Assembly: GCA_034505495.1 (NCBI GenBank)
Contig: JAPDQV010000010.1
Location: 33,108 to 97,107, forward strand
Direction: 5' to 3'
DNA: 64,000 nt
Source of the DNA: Candidatus Zhuqueibacterota bacterium
Lineage (GTDB): Bacteria; Zhuqueibacterota; Zhuqueibacteria; Residuimicrobiales; Krinioviventaceae
In this document: piece by piece, positions 31,755 to 58,494 of the stretch
How the letters are laid out: the number at the start of each line of letters is the position of its first letter
Position numbering within the stretch: position 1 is the first letter of the stretch
Made by a program: the position numbers and the translations under genes
Notes under the pieces: generated by a model
What the model was told of the DNA's origin: nothing
The model's input: the letters and a program-made list of their open reading frames with translations, nothing else
The model's database searches: none

Positions 31755-31773
31755 AAAGCTCCTCAATAAAAAC

Positions 31774-37835: not shown

Positions 37836-38232
37836 GCGAGCTCCTATCGGATGGCTTAAAAAGTATGATAATGTTAGCAATTCTCATTGAAAAGGCAAAG
37901 TGTTTTTCAGGGAGAAAACAGATTGACAGCAGTCACCATGAGAGAAGATTTTTCAATGTAAAAATCAGGTTTAAATTGCAAATGTATCGTTTTAGCTATA
38001 GAAAACGGCATTCGATCCAAAGGAAAGTTGAAGTCTAATGCTCAATTTTTAAAAGAAAACGAGCCGATTGGCTGCGGGCTGCCCGCGAAAACCTTCGTAC
38101 AAGCCGTAAAGCGTTTCTGCTCGATTCCGCAGGAGGCGATTGCCGACTGTGCAAACGATGTCGTTCAATAGACTGCCCGTAGAACGGCTTTGCAGCAGGA
38201 CATCGAGTCAGGTAGTGATTTTGCGGTAAAAA

Positions 38233-38907
38233 TCAAGCGGCAAGCAGGCGGCCGCCGCTCAGGCGAAAACGACGCCGCATTCGCTCGGCCAATTCGAGCG
38301 AGTGGGTGACGACGATCAACGCAACTCCTTGATCGTGATTTAGTTCGAGAATCAGGTCCGCCAGCGAAGCGGCCGAAACGGCGTCGAGGGAGCCGGTGGG
38401 TTCATCGGCGAGCAAAACTCGGGGGCGATTGATCAGCGCGCGCACCACTGCCGCCCGCTGCAGCTCGCCGCCGGAAAGCTGGGCAGGGAAATGATTCTGC
38501 CGTTCAGCCAAACCGACGCGCTCCAAAAGCGTTCGGGCGCGGGATTCGACTTCCGAGTCCGCACCGAATGCCAGCACCGGAAGCAGCACGTTCTCAAGGA
38601 CCGTCAACTGCGGCAGCAGGTGGTGGAGCTGAAAGACAAAGCCGATCTCGCGGTTGCGGACGCGCGCCAGCTCGTCTTCGGAAAGAGCGGCTAAATTGCG
38701 GCCGTTTAATTCGATTCGGCCGGAGTCGGGACGATCGAGGCCGCCGATGAGGTTCAGCAGCGTGCTCTTGCCCGAGCCGGAAGGGCCGACGACGGCGACC
38801 GAGTCGCCGGCCTCCACCTCCCAGTCAAGATTCTGCAAAACTTGAATCGCCCCGCCGGCCGAGGGATAGGATTTACTGACGCCGACAAGCTGTAGAATTT
38901 TCTGCAT
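38233..38907 (-). CDS. ABC transporter ATP-binding protein (LolD/FtsE/MacB-like) with no adjacent permease
   Basis: Walker A GPSGSGKST, Q-loop, signature LSGGELQRAAVVRAL, Walker B LLADEPTGSLD. Start at the ATG at 38905-38907 (MQKILQLVGVSKSY). Confidence 0.8.
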   Translation of the reverse strand: MQKILQLVGVSKSYPSAGGAIQVLQNLDWEVEAGDSVAVVGPSGSGKSTLLNLIGGLDRPDSGRIELNGRNLAALSEDELARVRNREIGFVFQLHHLLPQLTVLENVLLPVLAFGADSEVESRARTLLERVGLAERQNHFPAQLSGGELQRAAVVRALINRPRVLLADEPTGSLDAVSAASLADLILELNHDQGVALIVVTHSLELAERMRRRFRLSGGRLLAA

Positions 38908-38954
38908 GGCTACGCTCTTTTCCGCCTTAAAAAGTTTATGCCTCAAAAGCGCCG

Positions 38955-40190
38955 TTACTCTTCTACGCGATAGAGAAAACTCCGGCTGCGCAGGATGAGC
39001 GAACGCCCTTTGACCGCCGGCGAAGCCCAAAAGCCGTCGCCGAGCTGATTGACGGCCAGCTTTTTAAACGTCCGTTCGGCGCTCACGACCGTGGTTTTGC
39101 CTTTTTTGTCGAAAAAGTAAACTCGACCCGCTGCCGCAATCGGCGAGGCGCCGAACTGTCCGCCTAATTGCTGCCGCCAGAGCACATTGCCGGTTTTGGC
39201 TTCCAGACAGCTTGCCGTACCCTTGTCGTCGGCCATGAAAATCATGTGGTTGAGAAAAATCGGCGAAGATTCAATCGGCACATGCTCTTCCGCTTTCCAC
39301 ACCACTTTGGCCGTCAGATCGCCGATGCCGTGCGGATCCACGGCCCACAGATCGGCCGACACCTCCTCCCAGCCGCAGTTAATAAAAACCAAACCGTCGC
39401 CAAAGATCGGCCGCGAAATCGTCGAGTCGCCGCCGTACACCACCCGCCAAATTTCCTTGCCGGTATAAGGATCGAACGCCTGGCACACTTTGGAGCCGTT
39501 GCTGATCAGCTGCGGTTTGCCGTTTACGGTAATGACGATGGGCGTAATATAGGCCTTGTAATAGAGCGGATTGCCCGTATAATATTCTTTCGGCCGATCG
39601 GTCTTCCACACTGTTTTGCCGGTCAGCTTGTCGACGGCGGCAATGACCTGCACATCGGAACCTTCCAAATGAAGGATGAGCAGGTTCTCGAACAAAAGAG
39701 GCGAAGAGGCAGGCCCTTGGATGTGATCGCAGGTCACTTCGTTCCACTTCCACAGAATTTTACCGCTTTTGGTGTCGATACAGGCAGTGCCGAAGGTGCC
39801 GAAATGCACATAGACGCGGCCTTCCTCAATGACCGGTGAAGGCGTGGCGTAGCTGTTGAGCGGATGCTTGCCCTGCGGTTTGTCACAGGTAAAAACTTGG
39901 ATTTGCCGTAAGATCCTGCCGCTGTTGAAATCGACGCAGAGGCCAAAGAACTGCTTGCCGTCTTCGGTTGCCGTGGTTAACCATATTTGATCGCCCCAAA
40001 TCACCGGCGTTGACCAGCCATGGTAAGGGATAGCGGTCTTCCATTTGACGTTCTGAGTTTCGCTCCAGGTCAGCGGCAGGGCCGCGTCCACGACGCCGTC
40101 GCAGGTCGGGCCGCGCCAATCCGGCCAGTTTTCGATCGCCCATCCAGACGCATACAATAAAATCAGCAGACCGTAGCCCCGTTTCATCAT
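38955..40190 (-). CDS. Secreted PQQ-like beta-propeller repeat protein (BamB-like fold), paralog 1
   Basis: Signal peptide MMKRGYGLLILLYASGWA, N-terminal NWPDWRGPTCDG motif, repeated (V/I)Y..(S/T).DG.L.A.D..TG...W blades. AAGGAGG RBS. Confidence 0.75.
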   Translation of the reverse strand: MMKRGYGLLILLYASGWAIENWPDWRGPTCDGVVDAALPLTWSETQNVKWKTAIPYHGWSTPVIWGDQIWLTTATEDGKQFFGLCVDFNSGRILRQIQVFTCDKPQGKHPLNSYATPSPVIEEGRVYVHFGTFGTACIDTKSGKILWKWNEVTCDHIQGPASSPLLFENLLILHLEGSDVQVIAAVDKLTGKTVWKTDRPKEYYTGNPLYYKAYITPIVITVNGKPQLISNGSKVCQAFDPYTGKEIWRVVYGGDSTISRPIFGDGLVFINCGWEEVSADLWAVDPHGIGDLTAKVVWKAEEHVPIESSPIFLNHMIFMADDKGTASCLEAKTGNVLWRQQLGGQFGASPIAAAGRVYFFDKKGKTTVVSAERTFKKLAVNQLGDGFWASPAVKGRSLILRSRSFLYRVEE

Positions 40191-40229
40191 CTACCTCCTT
40201 TTGAATGATACTCAGCCGGACCTCATCAC

Positions 40230-41519
40230 TTACGGCCGCAACCGTTGATAGACCTTTAGAATGCTCTCCGCCATTCTGTGCATCGAAAACTGTTCCATGG
40301 CCGCCTTTCGGCCCTGCTCGGCCATGGCGCGCAGCTGCGTCGGGTCATCCAGCAGCGACGCCCAGGCAGCGGCCAAATGCTCGCCGTCGTTCGGTTCGTA
40401 AATGAGTCCGCCGCCGGTCCTTTCAATGAATTCTGGATAACCGCCGACATTCGGCTGCACAATCGGCACGCCTGCCGCCAAGGCTTCGATCTGATAAGCG
40501 CCGAAGGCTTCGCCGTTGAGAACCGGAACGGAGAGCAGCGTCAAGGTTTTGAGAAAGCGGATGCGATTTTGCCGATCAAACCGTTCGACGATTTCGACAT
40601 CCTGCCGCCAACCCGCCTTCTCGGTGCGTTGCAGCATCTGTTTGACGAACGGCCGGTCATCACCGGTATAGCCGCCGGTAAGTTTGAGTCGTACCGATTT
40701 GAAGCGACTCTCCTGCTTGAGGCGCAAAAAGGCATCGACCACAACTCCGAGGCCGAAATATTCGTTCATGCGGCAGAGATAGCCGATGACCGGCGGATCG
40801 AGCGGCAGCGGCGAGGGCTCGTACTCCGACGCATCGATGCCGCCGTCGACGGCAAACGTCTTTTCCTTCGGCAGCTTTAAGAGCGGCTCGACCCGCTCGA
40901 GATAGTGTCGTCCGGTGGAAATAAAGGCATCGACGTCGACGGCGCGCTCGGCCATCAGCTGCCAGACTTTGTCGCGATATTCGGGCCGCATGGGGTCGAT
41001 CCACTCATGTTCGTCCTGCAGCGAGCAGACCACCGCGGCGCCCACGTCGCGTTTGAGCCTACGCGCCAGTCCCAGCAGCAGGGCATTGGACAAATGCACA
41101 ATGTCCGGCTGCACATGTTCTTTTAGGTACCGCACGAGGTGGTCGAGTTCCGACGCCTGTCTTCCCTCTTCGCCGCGCAGCATGGAAATCGTCATTTCTT
41201 CCAGACCGGCTGCGCGTGTGGCGCCGGCGCGTTTGGCGATCAGCTGCAGCAGCGCCGGCGAATCGAGCGCCCGTTCCACCCACAACGGTGCGCGGCGATA
41301 AATCGGCAGCTTTTCTTTCAGGTAGGTATTTACCGCGCCGAAAAAGACCGGCGTGTCGCCCATTAGGCCGTGGACGTCGACGTTGAGCGGCAAATACATC
41401 GGCACCATAATGACCTGCAGACCGAGCGAACGCAGCGCCGTAATCAGCTGATTGTCGCGCAGACAGTTCTGACAATAAAAAGTGCCTCCCGAGCCGGGGA
41501 CGATGTGGACGATTTTCAT
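40230..41519 (-). CDS. Glycosyltransferase family 4 (GT-B fold)
   Basis: GT4 C-terminal domain with the E-x7-E-like region (NGEAFGAYQIEALAAGVPIV), ~429 aa. Confidence 0.8.
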   Translation of the reverse strand: MKIVHIVPGSGGTFYCQNCLRDNQLITALRSLGLQVIMVPMYLPLNVDVHGLMGDTPVFFGAVNTYLKEKLPIYRRAPLWVERALDSPALLQLIAKRAGATRAAGLEEMTISMLRGEEGRQASELDHLVRYLKEHVQPDIVHLSNALLLGLARRLKRDVGAAVVCSLQDEHEWIDPMRPEYRDKVWQLMAERAVDVDAFISTGRHYLERVEPLLKLPKEKTFAVDGGIDASEYEPSPLPLDPPVIGYLCRMNEYFGLGVVVDAFLRLKQESRFKSVRLKLTGGYTGDDRPFVKQMLQRTEKAGWRQDVEIVERFDRQNRIRFLKTLTLLSVPVLNGEAFGAYQIEALAAGVPIVQPNVGGYPEFIERTGGGLIYEPNDGEHLAAAWASLLDDPTQLRAMAEQGRKAAMEQFSMHRMAESILKVYQRLRP

Positions 41520-42748
41520 CGCGTTTCTCCAAAGGCATAGAGTTTACCGTCGACTGCACCTATGAGAATCATGCCGCCGCAGACAGCCGGCGAGCCGATC
41601 AGCTCTGCGCCGACTTCGTAGCTCCAAAGCAGCGAGCCGGATTTCAGACTCAACAGGTACAGCCTGCCGTCTTTGGAAGCAGCGACCACTTTGTCGCCGC
41701 AGATGACCGGAGAGCCGTCGATGTCGCCGCGGGCGGTAAACGTCCACACGGCGCGGCCGGTCCGGCGATCAACAGCGTGCAGGCGCCGGTCGCGGCCGCC
41801 GATGACCACCAGTTCCTCGTTCACGGCGGGCGAGGAAAAAAAGGCGCCGGCCTTGCCTTCGGCGTCGTAATACCAGATTTCCTTTTTTTGCGTCAAATCG
41901 AAGGCAATCAGGCTGCCGTTGAATACGCCGATATAAGCAACGTGGTCCAAGACAGCCGGAGAACCGGCGACGAAAGCGCCGACTTTAACGCTTTCCGCAC
42001 GGCTGCCGTCGACTGCATTGAGCAGATGGAGCTGCGAGTCGCAGCCGCCGAAAACGACCAACTCCTCGTCGATCGCGGGAGCGCCGTTGATGTAATTGGC
42101 GGTCTCGTAGCTCCAGATCAAGCGGCCGTCGCGGCTGAAGCAGCGCATTAGGCCGTCGTAGCAGCCGACGACTATCCCCTCTCCTGCCGCGTTTGCCGAC
42201 CCATAGATCTCACCATCGACCTGTCTTTCCCAGAGCACCTCGCCGCTGCGTGCGTTCAACGCATAGAATTTTCCTCCCAAGGTTCCCAGATAGAGGGTGG
42301 AATCGACCAACAGCGCCGGCGCTTCGATATCGTCGCCGAGTCCGACCGCCCATCGCCGTGCGCCGTCCGCCGGATCGACGCAGTAGAGCGTGTCGTTCAG
42401 CGAGCCGACGTAAACGCAGCCGAGTCCCACAATAGGCGATGCCTTGATGTCGTCGCCGGCCGAAAACGTCCACAACAGCTTCAGCTTTGCCGACAATTCG
42501 CCCTCGGCCGTTCCCTGCAGGGCAGGATTGCCGCGAAAAATCGGCCAGGAAAGAGAAGCGTAATCCGTTTGGCTTGAACGTTCCGAATCCTGTCGTGCGC
42601 AAGCAAGGAGCAGGCAAACGACGAAAAGGACCGCGCCGATCTTTATCCGGCTGATAAATAGGCCGGTAACTTGCCGATCACCCAGGCGGCGTTTATGCAG
42701 GAATGCATCGGCGGCAGCGCGCAGATTTAAAGGGTTCGGCTTGTTCAC
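41516..42748 (-). CDS. Membrane-anchored PQQ-like beta-propeller repeat protein, paralog 2 (GTG start)
   Basis: N-terminal TM helix (IGAVLFVVCLLLAC), SWPIFRGNPALQG motif, eight-fold repeats of the ...DG.LY...G..YA.D..TG..LW pattern. GTGA overlap with the upstream gene's stop. Confidence 0.7.
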   Translation of the reverse strand: MNKPNPLNLRAAADAFLHKRRLGDRQVTGLFISRIKIGAVLFVVCLLLACARQDSERSSQTDYASLSWPIFRGNPALQGTAEGELSAKLKLLWTFSAGDDIKASPIVGLGCVYVGSLNDTLYCVDPADGARRWAVGLGDDIEAPALLVDSTLYLGTLGGKFYALNARSGEVLWERQVDGEIYGSANAAGEGIVVGCYDGLMRCFSRDGRLIWSYETANYINGAPAIDEELVVFGGCDSQLHLLNAVDGSRAESVKVGAFVAGSPAVLDHVAYIGVFNGSLIAFDLTQKKEIWYYDAEGKAGAFFSSPAVNEELVVIGGRDRRLHAVDRRTGRAVWTFTARGDIDGSPVICGDKVVAASKDGRLYLLSLKSGSLLWSYEVGAELIGSPAVCGGMILIGAVDGKLYAFGETR

Positions 42749-44346
42749 GGTTCAGCCTCTTCGTGATTTTTAAGCGATATGGCGCCGGTTGGACAGGCTT
42801 CGGCGCATTGCCGAGCTGTCTTTTCCAACCCGCGCTCGAGCGATTCGTGAAACGGCACGGCAAGGCGCACCTGAAAGCCGCGTCCGACAAACGCCAATCC
42901 CAGCCGTTCCTGCGCCGCTTCGGCAATCTGAATGCAGATGCCGCATTTGATGCATTTGCCTGGTTCAAAAACCACCAGATCGTGGCGGTCTTCCACTTCC
43001 ACCCGTAATCGCTGACCCAACCGATAGCGCTTTGGGTCGGCGCCGTACTCGTGGGCATAAAGGCGCAGGCGACAGGAATTCGGCTTGCGGCAGTCGCAGT
43101 GCAGGCAGCGCTGCGCTTCGGCTACGGCTTCCTCCTCCGTAAAGCCGCCGGCCGGATCTTGGGGAGAGATTCGGTCAACCGGCGAAGCAGCTTTAGCCAT
43201 GCGTTCGACCTCTTCGGGCCGCAGGCGTCCGACGATCGAATTGAATCGGCTCGGCCTGCCGCTAATCGGCAGTCCTTTGAGATACTGATCGATCGAGTGA
43301 GCGAGGGTCTTTCCGTGGGCGACGGCGCGTACGGCCATGCGGCTTTCGGCAATCAAATTGCCGCCGGCAAAAACGCCTGCAAGCATAGTCTGCAGCGTCG
43401 TGCGGTCGACCTGAACGCCTTTGTCGCCGACTTGCAGCACGCCGCGGTAAAGCTCTGCGCCGGCGCCGGTTGTCAGAGCGACGGCGTCGTATTGATCGCG
43501 CAGCTGCCCGAGGCTGACGTCTTTGCCCAGCTCGACGCCAAAGTGTGTGCGGATGCCTAGTGCGAGGATGGTTGCGATTTCAGCATCCAGCACCTCGCGC
43601 GGCAGACGCTCGACAGGCACCGCCGAACGGAGGTTGCCGCCGGCTGCCGATTCCTTTTCATAAAGATCCACTGCATGTCCGAAGCGGCGCAAATAATAAG
43701 CGGCGGCGAGTCCGGCCGGACCGGCGCCCACGACGGCGACCCGCTTGCCGGTATCCGGCAGACACTCGGGCTGAAACGGCGTATCTGCGGCCAAATCGAG
43801 GTCGGCAACGATCTGTTTGAGCAGGCAGATCGAGACGGCGCCGTCTTTGAGTCGGCGCGTGCAGGCGTTTTCGCAGGGCGCCGGACAGATGCGGCCCAGC
43901 ACGGCCGGTAAGGCAATCTCCGCCTTGACCGTCGCGATTGCCGCCCGCCAATCGCGGTTCTGAATCTGACGAGTCATTAGCGGGATGTTCATTTGCGCCG
44001 GACAGGAGCGCTGACACGGAGCAGTGCAGTCGCCGACGTGTTCGCTGAGCAGCAGCTCGAGCGCCGAGCGCCGAAAGTCCCGCACCCGCTCGTTTTCAGT
44101 TTCAATGACCATGCCGTTCTCGGCCGGCGCCGAGCAGGACGGCATGAGTCTTCCCGAGGTTTTTTCTTCAACCATGCAGACCATGCAGGAGGTGTTGGGC
44201 GGAAAGCCTTCCAAGCGGCAGAGCGCGGGAATGAAAAAGCCCGCCGCCTCTGCGGCTGAAAAGAGGGTCGTGCCGCGCGGTACGTTCACCTCTCGGCCGT
44301 TGATGGTCAATCGCACGGCGGCTCCCTCCTCGACCTTGCGCTTCAT
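42745..44346 (-). CDS. Fe-S flavoprotein: N-terminal 2Fe-2S ferredoxin fused to a GltD/NfnB-like NAD(P)H:FAD oxidoreductase core with C-terminal 2x[4Fe-4S] ferredoxin
   Basis: LTINGREVNVPRGTTL...CRLEG..C..C (plant-type/NuoG-like 2Fe-2S). CTAPCQRSCP and CPAPCENAC (GltD N-terminal 4Fe-4S). VAVVGAGPAGLAAAYYL (FAD/NAD Rossmann). C-terminal CLHCDC...C and CIKCGICIQ...CAEACP clusters. Start at the ATG at 44344-44346, directly after the upstream stop. Confidence 0.8.
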   Translation of the reverse strand: MKRKVEEGAAVRLTINGREVNVPRGTTLFSAAEAAGFFIPALCRLEGFPPNTSCMVCMVEEKTSGRLMPSCSAPAENGMVIETENERVRDFRRSALELLLSEHVGDCTAPCQRSCPAQMNIPLMTRQIQNRDWRAAIATVKAEIALPAVLGRICPAPCENACTRRLKDGAVSICLLKQIVADLDLAADTPFQPECLPDTGKRVAVVGAGPAGLAAAYYLRRFGHAVDLYEKESAAGGNLRSAVPVERLPREVLDAEIATILALGIRTHFGVELGKDVSLGQLRDQYDAVALTTGAGAELYRGVLQVGDKGVQVDRTTLQTMLAGVFAGGNLIAESRMAVRAVAHGKTLAHSIDQYLKGLPISGRPSRFNSIVGRLRPEEVERMAKAASPVDRISPQDPAGGFTEEEAVAEAQRCLHCDCRKPNSCRLRLYAHEYGADPKRYRLGQRLRVEVEDRHDLVVFEPGKCIKCGICIQIAEAAQERLGLAFVGRGFQVRLAVPFHESLERGLEKTARQCAEACPTGAISLKNHEEAEP

Positions 44347-49744: not shown

Positions 49745-49821
49745 TGGACTTGTCTCAATATCGAGTTGACTTTGCCGTATGCAATCGCTGCAATTTACTC
49801 GGATGATTCATCGCCGCACGG

Positions 49822-50409: not shown

Positions 50410-50412
50410 TCC

Positions 50413-50634
50413 TTACCTCCCTGTCGGCGAAGCGACTGTTTCCTTCACCGCTTCAAGATCAAACCGATATTTGCAAGCCGCATATTGCGCACAGCTTGAG
50501 CACGATTCATGCTGGGAACAAGTCCGGCCATGCCAAAGGATTTTTCCCCGCATCATTCCTGCCGTGCCGACGGCCGCGGCGGCGGCAAGAACGAGCCATC
50601 TGGCGGCATCGAAGAAAAATTCTCGCCTGTTCAT
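50413..50634 (-). CDS. Small (~73 aa) Tat-signal Cys-rich protein
   Basis: ATG at 50632-50634, immediately after the stop of the upstream NHL gene (TAAGATG). MNRREFFFDAARWLVLAAAAAVGTAG Tat-like signal, then CSQHESCSSCAQYAACKY (four Cys plus His). Only visible as an internal segment of the 240-aa track ORF. Confidence 0.4.
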   Translation of the reverse strand: MNRREFFFDAARWLVLAAAAAVGTAGMMRGKILWHGRTCSQHESCSSCAQYAACKYRFDLEAVKETVASPTGR

Positions 50635-50635
50635 C

Positions 50636-51622
50636 TTAATGATCCTTTTTTTCAAATCGTCTGACCTGTTTCCGCAACGGATCCAAGGCATAGATCCGGC
50701 CTTCCGCATCGACCGCCAAATCGATGCCGACCACGGCCTCATCGAACTTTTCCGGTCCCGCGACCAGAGCGAGGAACTCACCGTGCAGGCCATGAATTTT
50801 GATGCGCGGCAATCCCTTTTCCGAGGTGACGAACGATCCGTCCGGCAATAGGGCGATGTGCGAAGGATTACAGCAGCCGCTGAATCCGTCGAGCGCAAAC
50901 GAAGACCGGCTCCACGCCGTGCGCATGCGACCGTCCGGCGTATAGTTTTCGAACTGATGCTTGCCGGGATTGACGACCCACAGCGATCCGTCTTGGTCGA
51001 GGACAAGGTCGAAATAAAAACTGGGGATGATGAATCCCTGCGAGTCATCAGAGGTCGAGCGCCGATCGATTTTGCCCAACAGGTTTCCTTGGCGATCGAA
51101 CCGCCAGACGACCTTTTGCCCGGCATCGGCAACAAAGACCTGATCTTTACCTACGGCAATCGAGGTCAGCACCGCATCGACGCCCAAATCCTGCCATTGC
51201 GCCCGCACGACACCGACAGCATCGCGAATCTGGATCGATTCGCCGTGCCCCAGATAGAGATTTCCCTGCTCATCGAAAGCCAGGCAGCTGACCGGCCTAT
51301 CCGTGGGCCATTGGGCAAGCCGGCGGCCTTCCGTCGTCAATACGAGCACCATCCGATCGCCGGAAACCGCCAATCGGTTGTCGAAAAGGGCGATCGCAAA
51401 CGGCTGCTGCAGCGGCAGGACAATCGGCTCCAGCTCATTGTAAAGTGTCTGGTGAGCCTCGCTCCGGCGGTAGCGATCGAGCCGATATTCGAAAGGATTG
51501 TCCGACCGTTGCCGAGCATCATCGCGCACGGCAGTCAGGCCGAAATAGACGGCACCGGCTACTCCTACGGCAATCACGGCATAGGTGAAAAAGCGATCGC
51601 GTTTTGTTTTTGGAGCGCTCAT
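50636..51622 (-). CDS. Membrane-anchored NHL-repeat / six-bladed beta-propeller protein
   Basis: N-terminal TM (FFTYAVIAVGVAGAVYFGL). Repeated ~40-aa blades containing DxxGNLY/DxDGSLWV/DAEGRIYALD patterns, characteristic of NHL repeats. Confidence 0.55.
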   Translation of the reverse strand: MSAPKTKRDRFFTYAVIAVGVAGAVYFGLTAVRDDARQRSDNPFEYRLDRYRRSEAHQTLYNELEPIVLPLQQPFAIALFDNRLAVSGDRMVLVLTTEGRRLAQWPTDRPVSCLAFDEQGNLYLGHGESIQIRDAVGVVRAQWQDLGVDAVLTSIAVGKDQVFVADAGQKVVWRFDRQGNLLGKIDRRSTSDDSQGFIIPSFYFDLVLDQDGSLWVVNPGKHQFENYTPDGRMRTAWSRSSFALDGFSGCCNPSHIALLPDGSFVTSEKGLPRIKIHGLHGEFLALVAGPEKFDEAVVGIDLAVDAEGRIYALDPLRKQVRRFEKKDH

Positions 51623-51628
51623 TATCTT

Positions 51629-53050
51629 TTACTCTCGCAAATCCAAACAGATCAAACGACGCGAATCGCGGCAGAGGAGCCTGCCGTCAACCAGGGCCAT
51701 AGGGCCCCATGCATCGCTGCCGTTCAACACTTTTGCCCGCGCCAAAGGCTGAAATCCGGCCGTCGTCGCACGCGCCAGAGTCAATTCGCCCTCGTCGCTG
51801 AGGATCAAAAATTTGCCGTCGGCTATAAGGTAAGGGCCGAGACCGAAACGCCATTCTCCCTCGCTGCTCCACACGATTTTTTCCGGAGCGCTCGCATGGG
51901 CGCATACAAACCGATTGCGCCTGGTGCCGGCATCTTTCGGCAAAATCGAGAACAGACAGCCTTGAAAAAAAATCGGCGTTTGCTGTTCGGAACAGAGCCC
52001 CTGATCGGGTTTATAGGCCTGCAGCAGTTCAGCGGAAAATTCCTCGCCGTTGCGGCGGATCTGGAAAACGGCGGCGCCGTTGCCGTAACCGGCGGTAAAA
52101 AAGATGCGGCCGTCACCCAGATGAATCGGCGACGGAGCAATCACGTTCGGCGCCCAAGCAGCGGACGAAAAGAGCAATCGGCCGCGATCCTCCCTTTCGG
52201 CGGAAACGCCGACGACTCCGCCGATCGCGGCATAAACGTACATCCTTTTGCCGTGAATAGTCATGGGCATTACGGACGAATGAGACATTTTCCAACCGTT
52301 GGGATTGGGCGTCTGCCAAAGGATTTCGCCGCTGCGCAGGTCGACGCCGACCAAAAGGGCGCTGCCGCCGGTGCCCAGGATCACCTGACCGTCGTCGATC
52401 AGCGGGCACTGACCGGTATACCAGAGCGGCACTTCGGCCTTGAATTCGGAAGCAATGTCGAGTCCCCAGCGGAATTCGCCGCTGAACCGGTTGACGCACA
52501 TCACCTGACATTGCGGCCCGATGGTGACGACAAAGCTGTCGGCAATTGCGGGAACCGTGCGCGACATGCCGTGATTGCGTTTGGTGTAAATGTCGTAGCC
52601 GCGTTGCCACAGCTCGGTGCCGTCGGCAAAAGAGAAACAGCGCAGCAGATCACGCCGCTTTTCTTCATCATAATCCAGCACATAGACGCGGCCGTCCGCC
52701 ACCGCGGGTCCGGCGTGCCCTTCTCCCAAATCCACAGACCAAAGTACCTTGGGACCTCCCTCCGGCCAGCGTTCGGCCAACCGATAAGAGTCTCGGCTAA
52801 TGTTGTCGAATCGCTCGCCGCGAAAGCGCGGCCATGCGCCGGAAGCAGGCGGAACGATCGGATTCAGCAGTTGAAAAAAAGAACCAATGCGCACGCCGGC
52901 AGCCGCCTGCAGCTCCGCCGGTCGGCCGTCCATGCCCGGACGAAATTCTGTGAAATGAGCGGCCGGATCATAAAGCAACCAATAAGCCAAAGCAATGACG
53001 GAAGCCAGACTGAAGAAAAACGTGAGGAAATTTTGGATTCTTTTGCTCAT
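51629..53050 (-). CDS. Membrane-anchored PQQ-like beta-propeller repeat protein, paralog 4
   Basis: Start at the ATG at 53048-53050 (MSKRIQNFLTFFFSLASVIALAYWLL TM anchor). AWPRFRGERFDN motif; blades with DGTELW, RSGEILW, DGRLLC. Confidence 0.7.
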   Translation of the reverse strand: MSKRIQNFLTFFFSLASVIALAYWLLYDPAAHFTEFRPGMDGRPAELQAAAGVRIGSFFQLLNPIVPPASGAWPRFRGERFDNISRDSYRLAERWPEGGPKVLWSVDLGEGHAGPAVADGRVYVLDYDEEKRRDLLRCFSFADGTELWQRGYDIYTKRNHGMSRTVPAIADSFVVTIGPQCQVMCVNRFSGEFRWGLDIASEFKAEVPLWYTGQCPLIDDGQVILGTGGSALLVGVDLRSGEILWQTPNPNGWKMSHSSVMPMTIHGKRMYVYAAIGGVVGVSAEREDRGRLLFSSAAWAPNVIAPSPIHLGDGRIFFTAGYGNGAAVFQIRRNGEEFSAELLQAYKPDQGLCSEQQTPIFFQGCLFSILPKDAGTRRNRFVCAHASAPEKIVWSSEGEWRFGLGPYLIADGKFLILSDEGELTLARATTAGFQPLARAKVLNGSDAWGPMALVDGRLLCRDSRRLICLDLRE

Positions 53051-53166
53051 GGCCGGAGCTGGTTTTCCTGGAATTTGAAAAAACGGCAAGGGCTACCGAC
53101 AGAAAATCTCCGATGCACTGTTTATAAGCCGGACGGGCTGCCAGGCTGTCCCGCCGGCATGAATCT

Positions 53167-54375
53167 CTATTGGGGTCGGCTGAGATCGTAGACCAACATT
53201 ACCTCTCCATGTCGAATGTAGAGGCGGCCGTTTTTGATCACCGGGTGCGCCCAATGCGGGCCTGAACCTTGTTTGATCTTGAATGTGCTGATCAACCGAA
53301 AGGTTTTGGGATCTGGTTTGATCAACGACACGGCGCCGTTTTCACTATACGCATAGATCATACCGTCGGCCGTGATGACGGCGGCGCGACGGACGAGCGT
53401 GCGATCATCAAACCCGACGGCACCGGTACGCCAATCCAGCGCCGTAAACCCGCCGTTGGAATAACCGGCGCCGTAGATGAAACCGTCGATCAGGACATAA
53501 TGACCGATTAAAGCGTCAAGCCGGTCGCTTTGCCATACTGGACGAACCGTTCTGCCGTCCGCCGAAATCTGCAGCAAAGCGCCGGTTCCGGTTTCGCCGC
53601 TATGGAAAAAGACGGCACCGTCATGGTAGATCGGCGTGTTGGCGTGAATGTCGTAGGGCGCCGTATGAGGATAACGCCACAACAACTCGCCGCTCTGTGC
53701 ATGCACGCCGATGATCGATTTCTGCAGGGCAGTAATCAGCATGGGGATGCCGTTATGCTTGACAAGGATCGGCGAGCAGTAGGAAGAGGATTCGCCGTTG
53801 CCTGCACACGTCCACAAAGTTTTGCCGCTCCACCGATCCAAGGCCGCCATGGCGGTTTTGCCGCCGGGCGTACAATAGATTGTGCCCCCGTCCACCAAAA
53901 GCTGCTCGGCAATGCCCCACTCGACCTCTATGCCGCCGAAACGTTTGTAAAGATCGGCGCTCCATATTTTTTCGCCGTCCAATGAAAGACAATAGAGGAC
54001 ACCTTGACCGCTCAACAAATAGAGACGATCGTTCGTCACCACCGGCGTGGATCGGGTGCCGGGGTAATTGCGCGTCCATTCCGGGCCATAGTCCTTTTCC
54101 CACAGCTTTTTGCCCTGCAGATCAAAGGCGAACAGGCGACCGACGCCGTCGAACTGGCCGGTCACATAAACGCGCTGCTCGGTGACTGCGGCGGATGTAT
54201 AGCCTTGTCCAAGACCATCCGCCTGCCAAAGCAGTTTCGGTCCTCCTTCCGGCCATACAGTCAGCAAAGATTCGTCGGGATAATGGCCGTCCCGTTTGGG
54301 GCCGCGCCATTGCGACAAGACTTGAGCGCCTGCCGCGGCGGCCAGAAGAAAGACGAGGAAAAGGCCTTTATTCAT
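53167..54375 (-). CDS. Secreted PQQ-like beta-propeller repeat protein, paralog 5
   Basis: Start at the ATG at 54373-54375 (MNKGLFLVFLLAAAAGAQVLSQWRGPKRDG). ~45% identical over its length to paralogs 6 and 7 (LWEKDYGPEW / LWKTIYGKEW / RWKTALSGQW). Confidence 0.75.
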   Translation of the reverse strand: MNKGLFLVFLLAAAAGAQVLSQWRGPKRDGHYPDESLLTVWPEGGPKLLWQADGLGQGYTSAAVTEQRVYVTGQFDGVGRLFAFDLQGKKLWEKDYGPEWTRNYPGTRSTPVVTNDRLYLLSGQGVLYCLSLDGEKIWSADLYKRFGGIEVEWGIAEQLLVDGGTIYCTPGGKTAMAALDRWSGKTLWTCAGNGESSSYCSPILVKHNGIPMLITALQKSIIGVHAQSGELLWRYPHTAPYDIHANTPIYHDGAVFFHSGETGTGALLQISADGRTVRPVWQSDRLDALIGHYVLIDGFIYGAGYSNGGFTALDWRTGAVGFDDRTLVRRAAVITADGMIYAYSENGAVSLIKPDPKTFRLISTFKIKQGSGPHWAHPVIKNGRLYIRHGEVMLVYDLSRPQ

Positions 54376-54388
54376 ATTTTCTCCAAGG

Positions 54389-55597
54389 TTACTTGGAAAT
54401 ATCGTAAACGAGCAAAACGTCGCCATGCCGAATATAGAGACGGCCGGCGTGGATGACCGGATGCGCCCAATGGGGACCGCTGCCCTCGGTAATGGAAAAG
54501 GCGCTGACCGGTTCGAATTTCTGCGGATTCGGCCTGACCAACACCACATCGCCTCGCTCGCTGTAGAGGTAGAGAAGACCGTCTGCAGCGATCAGCGGTC
54601 CTTTACCGCCGTACTCACGCGCAGTCCACATCAGTTTGCCGGTCTTGGCGTCCAAACAGGCCCAACCGCGGCTATTATGGCCTGAACTGTAAATGAAATC
54701 ACCGATCCATACCGCGCCGGCCATTTGGCTGTCCGGCGCTTTGGCGGTAAAAAGCTGCTTGACTTTACTGCCTTCCGGCGACAACTCGAGCATCTGCCCG
54801 CCCGTTCCATAGCCGCTGAGCGCAAATACCCGACCTTCGGAATAAAGCGGTGTGTTGGGATTCACGTCCCAACTTGTGATGTGCGGTTGACGCCAAAGCA
54901 GCTCGCCGCTTTCGGCGTCGACACCGATAACCGACTTTTGCGTCATGGTCAGGATCAGAGAGCGATTGCCGTGCTTGACCAACAGCGGCGAGCAATAAGC
55001 CGACAGCTCACCGTTGCCTTTGCACTGCCAGACGGTTTTGCCGGTGTGGCGGTCAAGGGCCGCCATCAGCACCGATACACCGCCGGGGGTGCAGATCATC
55101 CGGTCGCCGTCGATGAGCGGTGATTCCGCCATGCCCCATTCCGGCAGTCGGCCGCCGAAGGTTTTGAGCAGATCGACGCTCCACACCACCTTACCGGATG
55201 TCGTGAGACAAACCGCCGTCCCCACGCCGCTTATCAGATAGATGCGATCGTCGACGACGGTCGGTGTACTGCGCGCCCCCTCATGACCGCCGCTCCATTC
55301 CTTGCCGTAGATAGTTTTCCACAGCAGCTTTCCCTGATGATCCAACGCAAATAGAATTCCATTCTCGCCCACCAGCGAAGTTACGTAAACCGCCTGCGAA
55401 GTGACGGCCGGGGAAGAATAGCCGATGCCCAAGCCGGAAGCAGACCACACCTTTTGCGGTCCGCCGGCAGGCCAGGCGCTTATGAGGTTCTGTTCCGGGT
55501 ATTTGCCATCCCTCTGCGGTCCGCGCCATTGCGAAAGGACCTCGGCATGGAGATTAAAACAAAGGATCAATAAAAGAAAAAGCAAACTCTTTTTCAT
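54389..55597 (-). CDS. Secreted PQQ-like beta-propeller repeat protein, paralog 6
   Basis: MKKSLLFLLLILCFNLHAEVLSQWRGPQRDG. ATGA overlap with the stop of paralog 7. Confidence 0.75.
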   Translation of the reverse strand: MKKSLLFLLLILCFNLHAEVLSQWRGPQRDGKYPEQNLISAWPAGGPQKVWSASGLGIGYSSPAVTSQAVYVTSLVGENGILFALDHQGKLLWKTIYGKEWSGGHEGARSTPTVVDDRIYLISGVGTAVCLTTSGKVVWSVDLLKTFGGRLPEWGMAESPLIDGDRMICTPGGVSVLMAALDRHTGKTVWQCKGNGELSAYCSPLLVKHGNRSLILTMTQKSVIGVDAESGELLWRQPHITSWDVNPNTPLYSEGRVFALSGYGTGGQMLELSPEGSKVKQLFTAKAPDSQMAGAVWIGDFIYSSGHNSRGWACLDAKTGKLMWTAREYGGKGPLIAADGLLYLYSERGDVVLVRPNPQKFEPVSAFSITEGSGPHWAHPVIHAGRLYIRHGDVLLVYDISK

Positions 55598-56862
55598 TCT
55601 AACCTCTCATTTTTGGTTGCGCTGCACAAGCTGGTACAGACATCGTAAACCAAAAGGGCATTGCCGCGGCGAATGTACAACCGGCCGTCGGCAAGCGAAG
55701 GATGCGCCCAATGCTGCCCTGAACCGGCCGTGATCGCAAATGAACTGATCAATTCGAATTGCTTGGGATTGGGTCTGACCAAGCCGACACGACCTTCCTT
55801 TTCCGTGTAAAGATAGAGCATGCCGTCGGCAAAAATGATTGAGCCTTTGTTGATCCAGTGATGTTCCCAGAGCACTTTGCCCGATTTCAAGTCCAAGGCG
55901 ATCCATTTGCCGTTCGTATTGCCCTCCCAGCTTGCCCCGTAGATGACGCCGTTGACAACGACCACACCGCCGATGTGGACATCAAGCGTTTTGTCGGTCC
56001 ACAGCCGCTTGAGGGTCAGGCCGTCCGGTGAAATTTCATAGAGCGCCCCGCCGTCGTCATAACCGCTGGTCGCATAGAGCAATCCGTCGACGTAAACCGG
56101 GCTCACCGGATTGATGTCTTTGGGGCTATCTTGATAGGCCGAAAAGGCGTCTTTCCACAGCAATTTGCCGTCCAAAGCATCGACCCCGACGAGATAATGC
56201 TGCAGCATGGTGACGATGATCTTGCGGCCGCCGCGTTCCACCAGAATCGGCGAACAGTAGTTGGCCGTCTCTTCTTCGATTTTTGTCGTCCAAATAATGC
56301 GTCCGCTCATTTTATCCAGAGCAGCCATCGTTGCAAGTGCGCCGCCGGGTGTTACGATGACTTTATCATCAACGATCAGCGGTGACTCTGAAATGCCCCA
56401 TTTGTGATATTTTCCGCCAAATTTTTCCATAGCCTGAAGCCGCCACCGGATTTTGCCGTCCTTTGCGTTTACACAGGCAATTTCACCCATGCCGGTTATT
56501 GCATATACACGATCATCGTCCACGGTCGGCGTAGTGCGCGGCCCCGGATAGGAACGATCCCATTGCCCGGAAAGTGCAGTCTTCCAGCGAAGCCTGCCCT
56601 GCAGATTAAAGGCAAACAATGTTTCGACGCCCTTTTCCTCGCCAATAATGTAAACAGACCCCTTGGCGATTGCAGCAGAGCCGTAACCGGATCCGAGGTT
56701 CTCGACTGACCATAAAAGCCTTGGACCGTCTTCCGGCCATTGCTGGAGCAGACCGCTCTCCAAAGAGATGCCGTTGCGGAATGGGCCGCGGAACTGCGGC
56801 CAATCGGCGCTGTATAGACAAGTTGAAAATATAATTAAAATGAGTGTGGTTGTTTTTTGCAT
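55594..56862 (-). CDS. Secreted PQQ-like beta-propeller repeat protein, paralog 7
   Basis: MQKTTTLILIIFSTCLYSADWPQFRGPFRNG; the same blade pattern as paralogs 5 and 6. Confidence 0.75.
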   Translation of the reverse strand: MQKTTTLILIIFSTCLYSADWPQFRGPFRNGISLESGLLQQWPEDGPRLLWSVENLGSGYGSAAIAKGSVYIIGEEKGVETLFAFNLQGRLRWKTALSGQWDRSYPGPRTTPTVDDDRVYAITGMGEIACVNAKDGKIRWRLQAMEKFGGKYHKWGISESPLIVDDKVIVTPGGALATMAALDKMSGRIIWTTKIEEETANYCSPILVERGGRKIIVTMLQHYLVGVDALDGKLLWKDAFSAYQDSPKDINPVSPVYVDGLLYATSGYDDGGALYEISPDGLTLKRLWTDKTLDVHIGGVVVVNGVIYGASWEGNTNGKWIALDLKSGKVLWEHHWINKGSIIFADGMLYLYTEKEGRVGLVRPNPKQFELISSFAITAGSGQHWAHPSLADGRLYIRRGNALLVYDVCTSLCSATKNERLE

Positions 56863-56996
56863 GCCGTTCCTTTACGCGAGATTGTAACAATTCTAAGGAA
56901 TGTAATTCAGCGGGACCTTGCAGCCAAGTCAACAATTGTCAATCCGGGCAACAGAACGGCAAAAAACAGTTGAGCAAGGACGGTTTTCAGTTTGCG

Positions 56997-58427: not shown

Positions 58428-58494
58428 CGCGAACCATCCTTGCAAAGAGTTAGGATTTCAGCGTAATGTAAAACGTCACGGATCATAATTGATG

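Follow-up and report, generated by a model that had tools for sequence, protein, structure and literature searches.

A conserved bacterial gene cluster combining a Bfu-type flavoprotein module, a NapH-like membrane Fe-S protein and PQQ-like beta-propellers

Layout of the locus

The window, that is the whole stretch of 64,000 nucleotides from contig JAPDQV010000010.1 that was analysed, contains an uninterrupted series of genes on the minus strand, from position 56862 down to 38233, which the original prediction had described as a supercluster of about 18 genes. We count 15, the number to which the contents listed in that prediction also sum, and call them g1 to g15 from 56862 downwards.

55594–56862, minus: g1, signal-peptide PQQ_2 eight-bladed-type propeller, 422 aa (Pfam PF13360, 1.6e-28)
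54389–55597, minus: g2, signal-peptide PQQ_2 propeller, 402 aa (Pfam), ATGA overlap with g1
53167–54375, minus: g3, signal-peptide PQQ_2 propeller, 402 aa (Pfam), start reset to ATG 54375 by start-codon analysis
53084–53098, minus: weak terminator-like hairpin in the g3/g4 gap (consensus scan only)
51629–53050, minus: g4, N-terminal TM anchor and the most conserved propeller, 473 aa
50636–51622, minus: g5, N-terminal TM anchor and six-bladed NHL-type propeller, 328 aa
50413–50634, minus: g6, twin-arginine protein with C-x5-C-x2-C-x5-C, 73 aa, start ATG 50634
49822–50409, minus: g7, Tat-exported ferredoxin with RRQF signal, 195 aa (Pfam Fer4 families)
48434–49744, minus: g8, NapH-like polytopic membrane Fe-S protein, 436 aa (PF12801 Fer4_5, 3e-14)
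46737–48437, minus: g9, three-TM N-terminal module and PQQ_2 propeller, 566 aa (Pfam; hydrophobic segments)
44343–46736, minus: g10, fused BfuC (NuoE-like) and BfuB (NuoF-like), 797 aa (Pfam, NCBIfam)
42745–44346, minus: g11, NfnA/StnC-like Fe-S flavoprotein, 533 aa (alignment to 9bov_A)
41516–42748, minus: g12, lipobox (LLAC) PQQ_2/ACSF4-type propeller, 410 aa (PF13570, 194.6 bits, cut-off 133)
40230–41519, minus: g13, GT4 glycosyltransferase, 429 aa (Pfam)
38955–40190, minus: g14, signal-peptide PQQ_2 propeller and g9 paralog, 411 aa
38233–38907, minus: g15, LolD/MacB-type ABC ATPase, 224 aa (TIGR02211 LolD, 261 bits, cut-off 308)
38234–38261, minus: terminator-like hairpin, 10-bp stem and T run, overlapping the g15 stop

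The run has a coding fraction of 98.5 %. The predicted start/stop overlaps of 4 bp were found at five junctions, four of them ATGA (g1/g2, g8/g9, g10/g11 and g12/g13) and one GTGA (g11/g12), while five further junctions have gaps of 0, 1, 3, 6 and 13 bp. The gaps of 77 bp (49745–49821) and 116 bp (53051–53166) are present as predicted, but they are not the only ones above 14 bp, as 39 bp separate g13 from g14 (40191–40229) and 47 bp separate g14 from g15 (38908–38954), giving four in total. An organization in one or two long operons is plausible: the hairpin at the g15 stop likely marks the end of a transcription unit, and the weaker one between g3 and g4 may separate an operon of propellers from the core operon. 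No riboswitch was found for the cluster. Shared orientation alone is nothing special in this region, where every large ORF from 35967 to 63983 also lies on the minus strand.

Pfam and NCBIfam searches upheld all predicted domain assignments, comprising a NuoE and NuoF fusion, a Fer2_4/Fer4_20/GltD-like flavoprotein, a Fer4_5 NapH-like protein, a Tat ferredoxin, a Tat Cys4 protein, an NHL-like propeller, a GT4, an ABC ATPase and seven PQQ_2 propellers. As expected, the same searches of the 15 proteins returned no known terminal enzyme, and none of the 15 contains CxxCH. Hydrogenase, FDH, CODH or another low-potential donor catalyst as well as thioredoxin-, DsbD- or Msr-like proteins were likewise not found among the cluster proteins.

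Conservation of gene order across phyla

In nearly every sufficiently long locus among 162 fetched from other genomes, the genes follow the order [1–5 soluble propellers]-g4-g5-(g6)-g7-g8-g9-g10-g11-g12-g13-g15. This order is kept in more than 90 % of the testable loci and in seven phyla, namely Acidobacteriota/Aminicenantes, KSB1, Calditrichota, Latescibacterota, Bacteroidota, Verrucomicrobiota/Kiritimatiellia and Planctomycetota. Since other phyla share this order, the grouping is more than chance. Using the NapH-like g8, present in at least 470 species-representative genomes, as an anchor and counting only anchor loci with enough flank, we found g7 in 78 of 78 loci (52–77 % identity), g9 in 71/71, g10 in 59/60, g11 in 54/56, g5 in 62/64, g4 in 60/63, g12 in 51/54 and g13 in 46/50. 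The number of soluble g1–g3-type propellers upstream varies from 0 to 5 per locus elsewhere. In none of the other loci does a g14-type gene separate g13 from g15, so g14 is not a conserved member and is probably a lineage-specific insertion. The carriers come from oxygen-free sediments and represent seven or more bacterial phyla, and several of their lineages are described as fermenters.

In one split locus (L118) g11 has parted from g10 and remained beside g12-g13-g15, in another it follows an ABC-FtsX-FtsX-LolA_like operon (L113), and two Verrucomicrobiota loci (L076, L082) have the core with no g12, g13 or g15 nearby. The GT4 protein g13 carries the conserved motifs PG.GG.FYC.NC.RD and CSLQDE, and its NCBIfam matches are all far under the cut-offs. 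Within the LolCDE/MacB-type ABC systems, g15 is closest to LolD, yet it stays under the LolD cut-off. A tblastn search found no FtsX in the window, whereas in other genomes FtsX genes follow g15 (L001, L002, L080) and an FtsX and MacB_PCD permease is its neighbour; unlike in LolCDE, this permease is a duplicated protein of about 1000–1100 aa.

Flavoproteins, Fe-S proteins and propellers

Judged by homology, g10 and g11 belong to the Bfu family and resemble the electron-bifurcating transhydrogenases NfnABC/StnABC (PDB 9bov, 9n5u, 8oh5). The closest solved relatives of g10 are NfnB 9n5u_B (E 1.7e-217), 9bov_B and StnB 8oh5_B, followed by HydB, and the alignment with NfnB/StnB runs nearly end to end (E 1e-203 to 1e-217), although BfuC and BfuB are fused in g10. 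Both terminal Fe-S domains of g10 are retained, [2Fe-2S] at the N terminus and 2x[4Fe-4S] at the C terminus; the latter is described as a requirement for bifurcation and ferredoxin binding (PMC11829005). The NfnA/StnC likeness of g11 covers the N-terminal [2Fe-2S]/[4Fe-4S] part, the FAD domain and the subsequent Fe-S region, and its alignment with 9bov_A falls into two stretches (query 11–297 to chain 4–289, query 310–523 to chain 452–671). Unlike NfnA, g11 lacks the roughly 160 residues of the NADPH-binding subdomain and the entire C-terminal FDH-like domain. Because this subdomain is deleted, the predicted NAD(P)H donor is better narrowed to NADH plus ferredoxin, and an ordinary transhydrogenase function appears unlikely. 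Orthologues of g11 span 474–533 aa (mostly 520–533 aa), and a g11-anchored scan found the shortened form only with the cluster or its g12–g15 tail. Relatives of canonical length (L132–L141) have a NuoF-like gene as their sole neighbour, unlike g10 and g11, which are embedded among membrane and periplasmic genes. The two flavoproteins are thus homologues of Nfn/Stn, but in other genomes they have the same neighbours rather than unrelated ones.

As in NapGH, NosGH and MauMN, the cluster encodes a Tat-exported ferredoxin with 16 Cys: those of g7 are each at least 95 % conserved, consistent with four [4Fe-4S] clusters in a NapG-like architecture. For the small g6 no Pfam or NCBIfam family was matched. 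At least 34 of 63 loci have a comparable short ORF between g5 and g7, which shares both the RRxF motif and the Cys spacing of g6. The RRxF twin-arginine signals of g6 and g7 suggest that both are exported with their cofactor. Like NapH, g8 is polytopic and has PF12801, two CX3C(P) motifs and two ferredoxin-type Cys4 motifs, but it differs in a signal peptide, an invariant N-terminal RFPxPxF, an additional GCxC and two added TM helices ahead of the second, separated Cys4 motif. Both proteins score far below the family models (39.5 bits against a cut-off of 213 for g8 and TIGR02163 napH, 21.8 against 269 for NapG), and the cluster lacks NapA/B/C, NosZ and MauAB. Since the signal of g8 is of the Sec type and has no Tat motif, its ferredoxin motifs should be cytoplasmic. 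Natural g8-g9 fusions of 973–1136 aa account for 10 of the best 150 cluster representatives; in one of them (P0366), residues 460–1039 align to g9 with E 1e-121.

The seven PQQ_2 propellers form three groups, consisting of g1, g2 and g3 (44 % identity of g1 to both others, 51 % between g2 and g3) together with g4 (26–29 %), of g9 with g14 (29 %), and of g12 alone. A WPxFRGP motif had been ascribed to all seven; strictly, it occurs in g1 and g9 only, with WPDWRGP in g14, LSQWRGP in g2 and g3, WPRFRGE in g4 and WPIFRGN in g12, so that the common core reads [WL][PS]x[FW]RG. We rejected an identity as BamB, as none of the propellers reaches the BamB equivalog cut-offs (171 bits against 285 in TIGR03300 for g12, the most BamB-like) and their positions are fixed in synteny: g4, g5, g9 and g12 hold set places beside the Fe-S genes rather than being scattered, and the first three have an inner-membrane anchor. 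A PQQ dehydrogenase was also rejected (TIGR03075, 27–67 bits against 480). The nearest known proteins are BamB/YxaL-type PQQ_2 propellers and tetrathionate hydrolase, with sequence matches of g9 to BamB and to tetrathionate hydrolase (7cqy/6l8a). About 100 near-invariant residues are private to g4, a candidate catalytic or docking subunit, while g5 has an invariant vicinal Cys-Cys motif (GF.GCCNP) and a weak Pfam match to the lactonase/SGL family. No redox cofactor site could be identified in any of the propellers, and the models of g4 and g5 match mainly non-catalytic scaffolds (BamB, YxaL, TRIM NHL), whereby the propellers may be structural, with the true acceptor or enzyme encoded elsewhere.

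Proposed electron path and alternatives

In the literature that was searched no description of the cluster was found, as the original prediction had supposed; its parts are known modules and their combination appears undescribed. NapH-like extracytosolic systems (NosR-NosZ, PceC-PceA, NapH-like proteins with NirS or ExaA) share the logic of a NapH-like conduit serving periplasmic enzymes, several of them beta-propellers, but what defines them is ApbE flavinylation together with domains that bind FMN (Meheust et al. 2021, PMC8238504), whereas this cluster has no FMN_bind domain, ApbE or flavinylation motif [ST]G[AS]Tx[ST] and uses a Bfu module as its donor side. Bfu enzymes bound to the membrane (Nuo-Bfu, Mbh-Bfu), in which a BfuBC core lies inside a membrane-complex operon as seen here, have been predicted before (Schut et al. 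2022, PMC9304861). Their membrane partners are complex I-type or Mbh-type ion-pumping modules rather than a NapH-like Fe-S protein facing the periplasm, and a search of that paper for PQQ and propeller proteins found neither mentioned.

The predicted path from the cytoplasm through a membrane Fe-S protein to the periplasm is supported by localisation signals, homology and gene fusions, from which we infer it. We give about even chances to a haem-independent membrane complex that sends electrons from NADH and ferredoxin outward to periplasmic Fe-S and propeller subunits. The core g4–g11 with its usual companions g12, g13 and g15 would form one membrane-spanning oxidoreductase. In the cytoplasm, g10, with its FMN, NADH site, [2Fe-2S] clusters and C-terminal 2x[4Fe-4S] ferredoxin-binding domain, and g11, as an Fe-S/FAD subunit that has lost the usual NADPH binding, would draw electrons from NADH and probably also from reduced ferredoxin. 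This module is presumed to dock at the cytoplasmic ferredoxin-type clusters of g8, which would carry the electrons across the membrane via its conserved Cys motifs to the four-cluster ferredoxin g7 and the Tat Cys4 protein g6. Both would be surrounded by the membrane-anchored propellers g4, g5 and g9, the last of which is fused to g8 in some organisms. One propeller may hold or present the acceptor, and the candidates are g4, which has an invariant polar patch of its own, and g5, which has the Cys pair. Assembly on g8, electron direction, ferredoxin use, propeller catalysis and the nature of the acceptor are all putative in this scheme, which could provide fermentative anaerobes with a haem-independent electron sink or a low-potential periplasmic reductase. 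In Wolinella, NapH bridges the cytoplasmic Fe-S protein NapF and the periplasmic NapG (PMC5928378), and NapH-like proteins are modular transmembrane electron conduits beside the periplasmic propeller enzymes NosZ, NirS and ExaA (PMC8238504). Outward flow would, on thermodynamic grounds, be helped by the membrane potential. The constant GT4 and Lol/MacB-type ABC as well as the split g11 loci count against the scheme, as a simple respiratory model leaves them unexplained, and so does the retained g11 FAD, which has no partner in it.

In a rival reading, the redox chain would bring reducing power to the periplasm so that an envelope component can be matured, repaired or modified, instead of serving as an energy-metabolism sink. 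The propellers, a lipoprotein such as g12 or a GT4-made glycolipid moved by the Lol/MacB-type ABC would then be reduced, at thiols/disulfides or otherwise. The conserved lipobox protein, GT4, LolD-like ATPase and FtsX/MacB_PCD permease, the split loci L118 and L113, the BamB-like scaffold folds, and the invariant Cys pair of g5 with the Cys motifs of g8 all point that way, a disulfide relay having been discussed as one possibility (PMC5928378). We nevertheless consider such an envelope-maintenance machine unlikely: a two-flavin Bfu-type module of roughly 20 clusters seems too heavy for a maintenance reductase, the core occurs apart from g12, g13 and g15 in L076 and L082, and thioredoxin-, DsbD- and Msr-like proteins are absent from the cluster.

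Electron flow in reverse, with the propellers and g6/g7 oxidising a periplasmic donor and the Bfu module bifurcating to NAD+ and ferredoxin, is decidedly improbable. In its favour, Bfu enzymes can run either way and most descriptions present them as bifurcating (PMC9304861, PMC11829005), NapH-like systems also occur beside periplasmic oxidases such as the PQQ propeller ExaA (PMC8238504), the variable number of soluble propellers resembles substrate-range expansion, and g5 has its lactonase/SGL match. Against this, the propellers bear no PQQ-dehydrogenase signature, and inward flow would move electrons against the membrane potential with no spare redox drop; it would need a very low-potential periplasmic donor, for which the cluster has no catalyst.

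Very improbable, in our estimate, is a two-part system in which the quinone pool rather than a direct Fe-S relay joins the two membrane sides, g10/g11 with g8 forming an NADH/ferredoxin:quinone oxidoreductase and g8/g7 a NapGH-type quinol dehydrogenase. It is disfavoured by the low NapH score of g8 and by the fermentative character of several carrier lineages. NapH homologues are, however, classically regarded as quinol dehydrogenases, NapH being the proposed quinol-oxidising subunit (PMC5928378, PMC8238504), so a quinone step could still take part, and the Nuo-Bfu enzymes predicted by Schut et al. are menaquinone-reducing (PMC9304861).

That the cluster is a mere juxtaposition of unrelated operons, for an ordinary transhydrogenase of the Nfn/Stn type, a remnant of NapGH and paralogs of BamB, is scarcely credible and largely refuted: although each part has independently working homologues elsewhere and the 116- and 77-bp gaps with a terminator-like site could part the units, the gene order recurs across seven phyla, the NADPH-binding subdomain is gone, full-length Nfn-type relatives occur apart from these neighbours, g8-g9 fusion proteins exist, and 4-bp overlaps cross the module borders g8/g9, g10/g11, g11/g12 and g12/g13.

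Layout and gene content of the cluster

Between positions 56862 and 38233 of the window, ORF listing and inspection of start codons yielded 15 genes on the minus strand, numbered g1 to g15 in the order of transcription, rather than the approximately 18 of the original prediction. The span is 98.5 % coding, with ATGA overlaps at the four junctions g1/g2, g8/g9, g10/g11 and g12/g13, a GTGA overlap at g11/g12 and intergenic gaps of 0–13 bp at five more. The two larger gaps initially described as the only ones, 116 bp at g3/g4 and 77 bp at g7/g8, are present, but two further gaps of 39 bp (g13/g14) and 47 bp (g14/g15) have to be added. As all large ORFs from 35967 to 63983 lie on the minus strand, co-orientation of the cluster genes by itself says little. 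Terminator-like hairpins were found as mere consensus matches over the g15 stop codon (10-bp stem) and, weaker, in the g3/g4 gap. An Rfam scan of 37500–57500 (E up to 1) returned no riboswitch or other RNA hinting at a ligand, and the Rex operator TTGTGAAnnnnTTCACAA, searched with up to three mismatches, gave only two chance-level matches, both distant from the cluster. The AT skew rises abruptly to 0.233 at 48001–50000 over the NapH-like gene, which probably reflects the U-rich codon bias of a highly hydrophobic minus-strand membrane protein and not a replication or mobile-element signal.

Genes of the cluster in order of transcription (all minus strand, window 56862 to 38233), with domain content and, where counted, the testable related loci retaining the gene
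g1, g2, g3: PQQ_2 propellers with signal peptide
g4: one TM helix followed by a PQQ_2 propeller; 60/63
g5: one TM helix and an NHL-type propeller; 62/64
g6: small Tat protein of 73 aa, RREFF, four Cys, without family
g7: Tat ferredoxin, RRQF, 16 Cys; 78/78
g8: NapH-like polytopic membrane protein, Fer4_5 (PF12801)
g9: PQQ_2 propeller preceded by three hydrophobic segments; 71/71
g10: NuoE+NuoF fusion; 59/60
g11: NfnA/StnC-like flavoprotein, Fer2_4 + Fer4_20 + FAD Rossmann domain; 54/56
g12: PQQ_2 propeller with lipobox-like LLAC, the most BamB/ACSF4-like of the seven; 51/54
g13 (40230–41519): GT4; 46/50
g14 (38955–40190): PQQ_2 propeller with signal peptide
g15: LolD-like ABC ATPase; 34/50

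Pfam and NCBIfam searches bore out the domain calls that had been made from the sequence alone. The seven PQQ_2 propellers fall into three paralog groups and do share an N-terminal motif, its actual form being [WL][PS]x[FW]RG instead of the proposed WPxFRGP(x)nG; this motif is probably a general trait of the propeller family and not specific to the cluster. None of them can be assigned to BamB, the best match being g12 with 171 bits (TIGR03300, cut-off 285) and 106 bits (NF008351, cut-off 423), while the others score 25–69 bits, nor to PQQ-dependent alcohol or glucose dehydrogenases, as none reaches the TIGR03075 cut-off of 480 bits. The predicted lack of cytochrome c motifs was likewise confirmed, CxxCH being found in none of the 15 proteins, and a multihaem or cytochrome c conduit was rejected. 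The flavinylation motif [ST]G[AS]Tx[ST] and Pfam matches to FMN_bind or ApbE are also absent from all 15 proteins.

Conservation of the cluster across phyla

Relatives of the membrane protein g8 are numerous, with 6115 proteins at E ≤ 1e-10 among the candidates scored, the best of them 56–66 % identical. When 1.84 billion 50 %-identity representatives were searched exhaustively, 397 clusters matched at E ≤ 1e-30. With one genome scanned per GTDB species, at least 470 genomes encode a g8 relative; the proposed complex comprises 11–15 genes, and its subunits are 45–75 % identical across phyla. The best 80 g8 loci belong to Acidobacteriota/Aminicenantes, KSB1, Calditrichota, Latescibacterota, Bacteroidota, Verrucomicrobiota/Kiritimatiellia (Pontiella) and Planctomycetota (Sedimentisphaerales), the closest cluster proteins coming from KSB1 and Calditrichota MAGs.

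The 15 window proteins were compared by tblastn with these 80 loci, counting for each gene only loci with enough flank. Gene order and orientation are as in the window at nearly all testable loci, and the order was confirmed in pre-computed gene calls of one Acidobacteriota and one KSB1 contig. At least 34 of 63 loci have a g6-like ORF (RRxF and C-x5/6-C-x2-C-x5-C, strict pattern) in the interval from g5 to g7, and propellers of the g1–g3 type occur 5′ of g4 in zero to five copies per locus. Exceptions are a Sedimentisphaerales locus (L080), in which g12-g13-g15-FtsX stand upstream of g4, and two Verrucomicrobiota loci that carry only g5 (inverted), g4 and g7–g11. This conserved synteny is the decisive evidence that the cluster is real and non-random. 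The propeller g14, a paralog of g9 at 29 % identity, is found between the GT4 and ABC ATPase genes in the window only and at this position in no related locus, and was probably gained by a duplication or insertion specific to its lineage.

Some Bacteroidota clusters contain extra ORFs, which were considered as clues to a terminal enzyme and turned out to be uninformative. They lie in L037 (15760–16137 and 17806–18765), L045 (15499–15870 and 17660–18121) and L108 (9580–10539). In clusters of the Prolixibacteraceae type, small genes for 23S-rRNA-intervening-sequence proteins and an IS200 transposase are inserted at the g10/g11 junction or downstream of g11, and a gene for a ThuA-domain protein adjoins g11 in two Bacteroidota loci.

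Metagenome contigs were also scanned in reverse, anchored on the flavoprotein g11, which separated two classes. Contiguous g11 matches (~1540 nt, 39–51 % identity) are preceded by g7–g10 and followed by g12/g13/g15 in all cases with flank. Matches with an insert of 300–480 nt (L132–L141) are of canonical length and have a g10-like gene (43–49 % identity) as sole neighbour, with none of the membrane or periplasmic cluster genes beside them at these loci. A few split loci place g11 with g12-g13-g15 (L118), with the ThuA-domain gene (L108) or after an ABC-FtsX-FtsX-LolA_like operon (L113). At 541–8284 of the latter, the g11-type truncated flavoprotein comes directly after an operon of TetR, ABC ATPase, FtsX, FtsX (MacB_PCD) and LolA_like, with no g10 nearby, which represents a second, independent link of a g11-type flavoprotein to Lol/MacB-type transporters.

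Redox modules and propellers

In g10, Pfam detects 2Fe-2S_thioredx in two stretches, Complex1_51K, NADH_4Fe-4S and Fer4_21 at 740–788; residues 10–163 match NuoE models, while residues 186–791 align to 7–596 of the 602-aa NfnB 9n5u_B with E 1.7e-217. This chain is also the nearest solved structure, followed by chain B of 9bov, chain B of 8oh5 (presumably the StnABC structure) and HydB proteins. The features of the BfuBC core are present, namely the FMN/NADH site, the N-terminal [2Fe-2S], the NuoE-like part and the C-terminal 2x[4Fe-4S] domain, on which ferredoxin binding and bifurcation are described to depend (PMC11829005).

The nearest structures to g11 are NfnA/StnC chains (E 1e-94 to 1e-101). 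Its alignment to 9bov_A and 8oh5_C consists of two blocks, 11–297 on 4–289 and 310–523 on 452–671, and chain residues 290–451, a stretch of about 160 residues that separates the two halves of the FAD domain, have no counterpart. Judging by the fold, this stretch is presumably the NADPH-binding subdomain of GltD/NfnL-type flavoproteins. NADPH is described to bind adjacent to the FAD (PMC11829005). Furthermore, the end of g11 corresponds to about position 671 in this chain of 1178 aa, so that the C-terminal FDH/NuoG-like domain of ~500 aa is missing. Its orthologues measure 474–533 aa, mostly 520–533 aa, which indicates that the truncation is ancestral to the cluster. NfnABC and StnABC possess both the NADP(H)-binding FAD domain and the C-terminal FDH-like domain; as g11 lacks the presumed NADPH-binding part of the former and the whole of the latter, the cluster does not belong with them, and this NfnA-like subunit predicted to lack the NADPH domain is a diagnostic derived feature of the cluster.

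The membrane protein g8 carries two CX3C(P) motifs (C140/C144, C228/C232-P) and two ferredoxin-type motifs (C256–C266, C401–C411). With scores of 39.5 for TIGR02163 (cut-off 213) and 36.3 for NF007013 (cut-off 234) it is rated here a superfamily relative rather than an orthologue. Despite its Tat signal and 16 conserved Cys, g7 scores only 21.8 against the NapG model NF007012 (cut-off 269) and was rejected as a NapG orthologue. NapGH systems moreover are associated with NapA, NapB and NapC, none of which is encoded by the cluster or by the related loci that were inspected.

The signal of g8 is of the Sec type without a twin-arginine motif, whereas g6 and g7 carry this motif, and together with established Tat/Fe-S biology this most simply places the ferredoxin-type motifs of g8 in the cytoplasm and g6 and g7 in the periplasm. 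Under that topology the two CX3C(P) motifs of g8 would lie at the cytoplasmic face and its invariant GCxC (C96, C98) and C192 at the periplasmic face, so that conserved Cys would be present at both membrane sides. For these motifs in NapH, NosR and RdhC the literature leaves open a cluster or a disulfide role, and NapH of Wolinella contacts both the cytoplasmic NapF and the periplasmic NapG (PMC5928378).

Ten of the best 150 g8 representatives are proteins of 973–1136 aa in which a g8-like part is followed by a g9-like part; in P0366, for example, residues 460–1039 align to 5–566 of g9 with 38 % identity (E 1e-121). Such fusions (P0366, P0375, P0394, P0398, P0400 and others) occur in several 50 %-identity clusters. 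As natural single polypeptides they argue, in the Rosetta-stone sense, for g8 and g9 acting within a single complex, with the g8 C-terminus (past the last Cys4 motif) and the g9 N-terminus predicted on the same side of the membrane.

Among the propellers, g4 is the best conserved, with about 100 of 473 residues at least 95 % conserved across phyla, and it has invariant polar residues (K157–H160, M255–H257, E355–P359, R401 and others) that are absent in g1–g3. The model of g5 (pLDDT 85) shows an NHL propeller of six blades, whose closest matches are TRIM NHL domains and PAL; g5 carries an invariant GF.GCCNP motif, around which pLDDT drops to ~60. Fold searches with good models matched both to generic propeller scaffolds and assigned no cofactor or active site to either, and the predicted proteins of the cluster include no identifiable terminal enzyme.

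Proposed electron path and alternative readings

The reading we favour, which we rate about evenly between right and wrong, is an export of electrons from a Bfu-type module through g8 and g7/g6 to an acceptor on anchored propellers. The cytoplasmic module would oxidise NADH, and probably also reduced ferredoxin, and g11, through its Fe-S chain, would deliver the electrons to g8 at its cytoplasmic clusters. NfnA is known to have a dead-end cluster branch (PMC11829005), which the loss of the FDH-like domain in g11 would expose. Having crossed the membrane through g8, the electrons would arrive at g7 and g6 and finally at an acceptor that sits on g4, g5 and g9, the anchored propellers.

What this export model leaves unexplained are its conserved companions, the GT4 g13, the lipoprotein-like g12 and the Lol/MacB-type ABC system, and an envelope-directed role of the cluster, although unlikely in our view, is its main rival. 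With 261.4 bits g15 stays below the LolD cut-off of 307.75. A duplicated FtsX/MacB_PCD permease follows g15 in L001, L002 and L080; tblastn found no such permease in the whole 64-kb window, and the ATPase is therefore orphaned there or partnered by a permease encoded elsewhere. In g13 and its orthologues the near-invariant PG.GG.FYC.NC.RD (C16, C19) and CSLQDE (C165) were observed; such Cys-containing motifs are unusual for GT4 enzymes and suggest a metal or redox site.

The same components operating in the reverse direction, with import of electrons from the periplasm, is quite unlikely. The membrane potential would assist an outward movement of electrons, and to reduce NAD+ and ferredoxin with periplasmic electrons, a donor of very low potential would be required, for which no catalyst is encoded. 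We regard as very unlikely a two-step system in which a quinone would mediate the transfer. That unrelated operons are merely juxtaposed is highly improbable and largely refuted.

A bolder version of the export model, to which we give little credence, would see in the cluster a widespread respiratory-type electron-sink complex independent of haem and flavinylation, composed of Bfu confurcation, an Fe-S chain and a new class of propeller-based terminal reductase. Electrons from NADH and ferredoxin would be confurcated and sent out at low potential, aided by the membrane potential, with either g4, which has an invariant polar patch, or g5, which has a vicinal Cys-Cys, as the terminal reductase. 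An environmental compound would be the acceptor; one guess is a sulfur species, for example polysulfide, thiosulfate or a polythionate, prompted solely by a weak resemblance to tetrathionate hydrolase.

The modules themselves are of known kinds. Bfu proteins including predicted membrane-bound members have been described, and the survey of Schut et al. lists Nfn-type BfuB in Bacteroidetes and 17 clades without assigned function (PMC9304861), among which this cluster may be hidden. NapH-like extracytosolic systems pair with periplasmic propeller enzymes such as NosZ, NirS and ExaA (PMC8238504). Flavinylated NapH-like, NosR and PceC systems differ in having an extracytosolic FMN-binding domain and ApbE, both of which the cluster lacks. 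By its predicted proteins the cluster is thus neither a NapGH orthologue, a flavinylated NapH-like system, BamB nor a PQQ dehydrogenase, and we provisionally regard the combination in one cluster as new; the full-text literature searched by module names, taxa and 'electron bifurcation', with incomplete coverage, holds no description of it.

The carriers, Aminicenantes, KSB1, Calditrichota, Latescibacterota, Marinilabiliales-type Bacteroidota, Kiritimatiellia and Sedimentisphaerales, are abundant carbon degraders of anoxic sediments, for which models usually assume that electrons are disposed of by fermentation plus hydrogenases. If the export model holds, a connection between the periplasm and their pools of NADH and ferredoxin would be a redox outlet so far unaccounted for, adding a transmembrane 'third substrate' to the Bfu family and giving NapH-like conduits a direct cytoplasmic donor; the electron-sink version would mean a new electron sink for fermentative FCB, PVC and Acidobacteriota anaerobes. 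The export complex would also provide a first function for a large block of genes labelled 'BamB', 'PQQ-like repeat protein', 'NuoF', 'glutamate synthase small subunit' or '4Fe-4S binding protein', labels that can misguide metabolic reconstruction, for example towards inferred Nfn or PQQ-ADH activities.

The genes flanking the cluster were considered as partners as well. Upstream, a GFO/IDH/MocA oxidoreductase with a twin-arginine signal is encoded at 56997–58445, and a second one at 33945–35540 matches the BT_2158 glycoside 3-dehydrogenase family below its cut-off (327 bits, cut-off 750); neither of the two is a conserved neighbour elsewhere. Beyond g15 come a strong terminator-like hairpin and then a GH44 gene, with no FtsX/MacB_PCD permease gene in the stretch 37881–38232. 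Adjacency of the Tat-type GFO/IDH/MocA, GH44 and DUF6055 genes is kept in one of 162 related loci, and they were rejected as partners. At 60253–62837 a TIGR03279-family radical SAM gene (389 bits, cut-off 575) is translationally coupled to a Der/EngA GTPase gene upstream of the cluster region, a pair with no relation to the cluster. Three secreted proteins encoded at 29334–31766, 35967–37880 and 58495–60246, among them a GH44, an F510_1955-like glycosylhydrolase and a DUF6055 protein, point to an organism of the FCB group by their C-terminal T9SS sorting domains of the Por_Secre_tail/CHU_C type.
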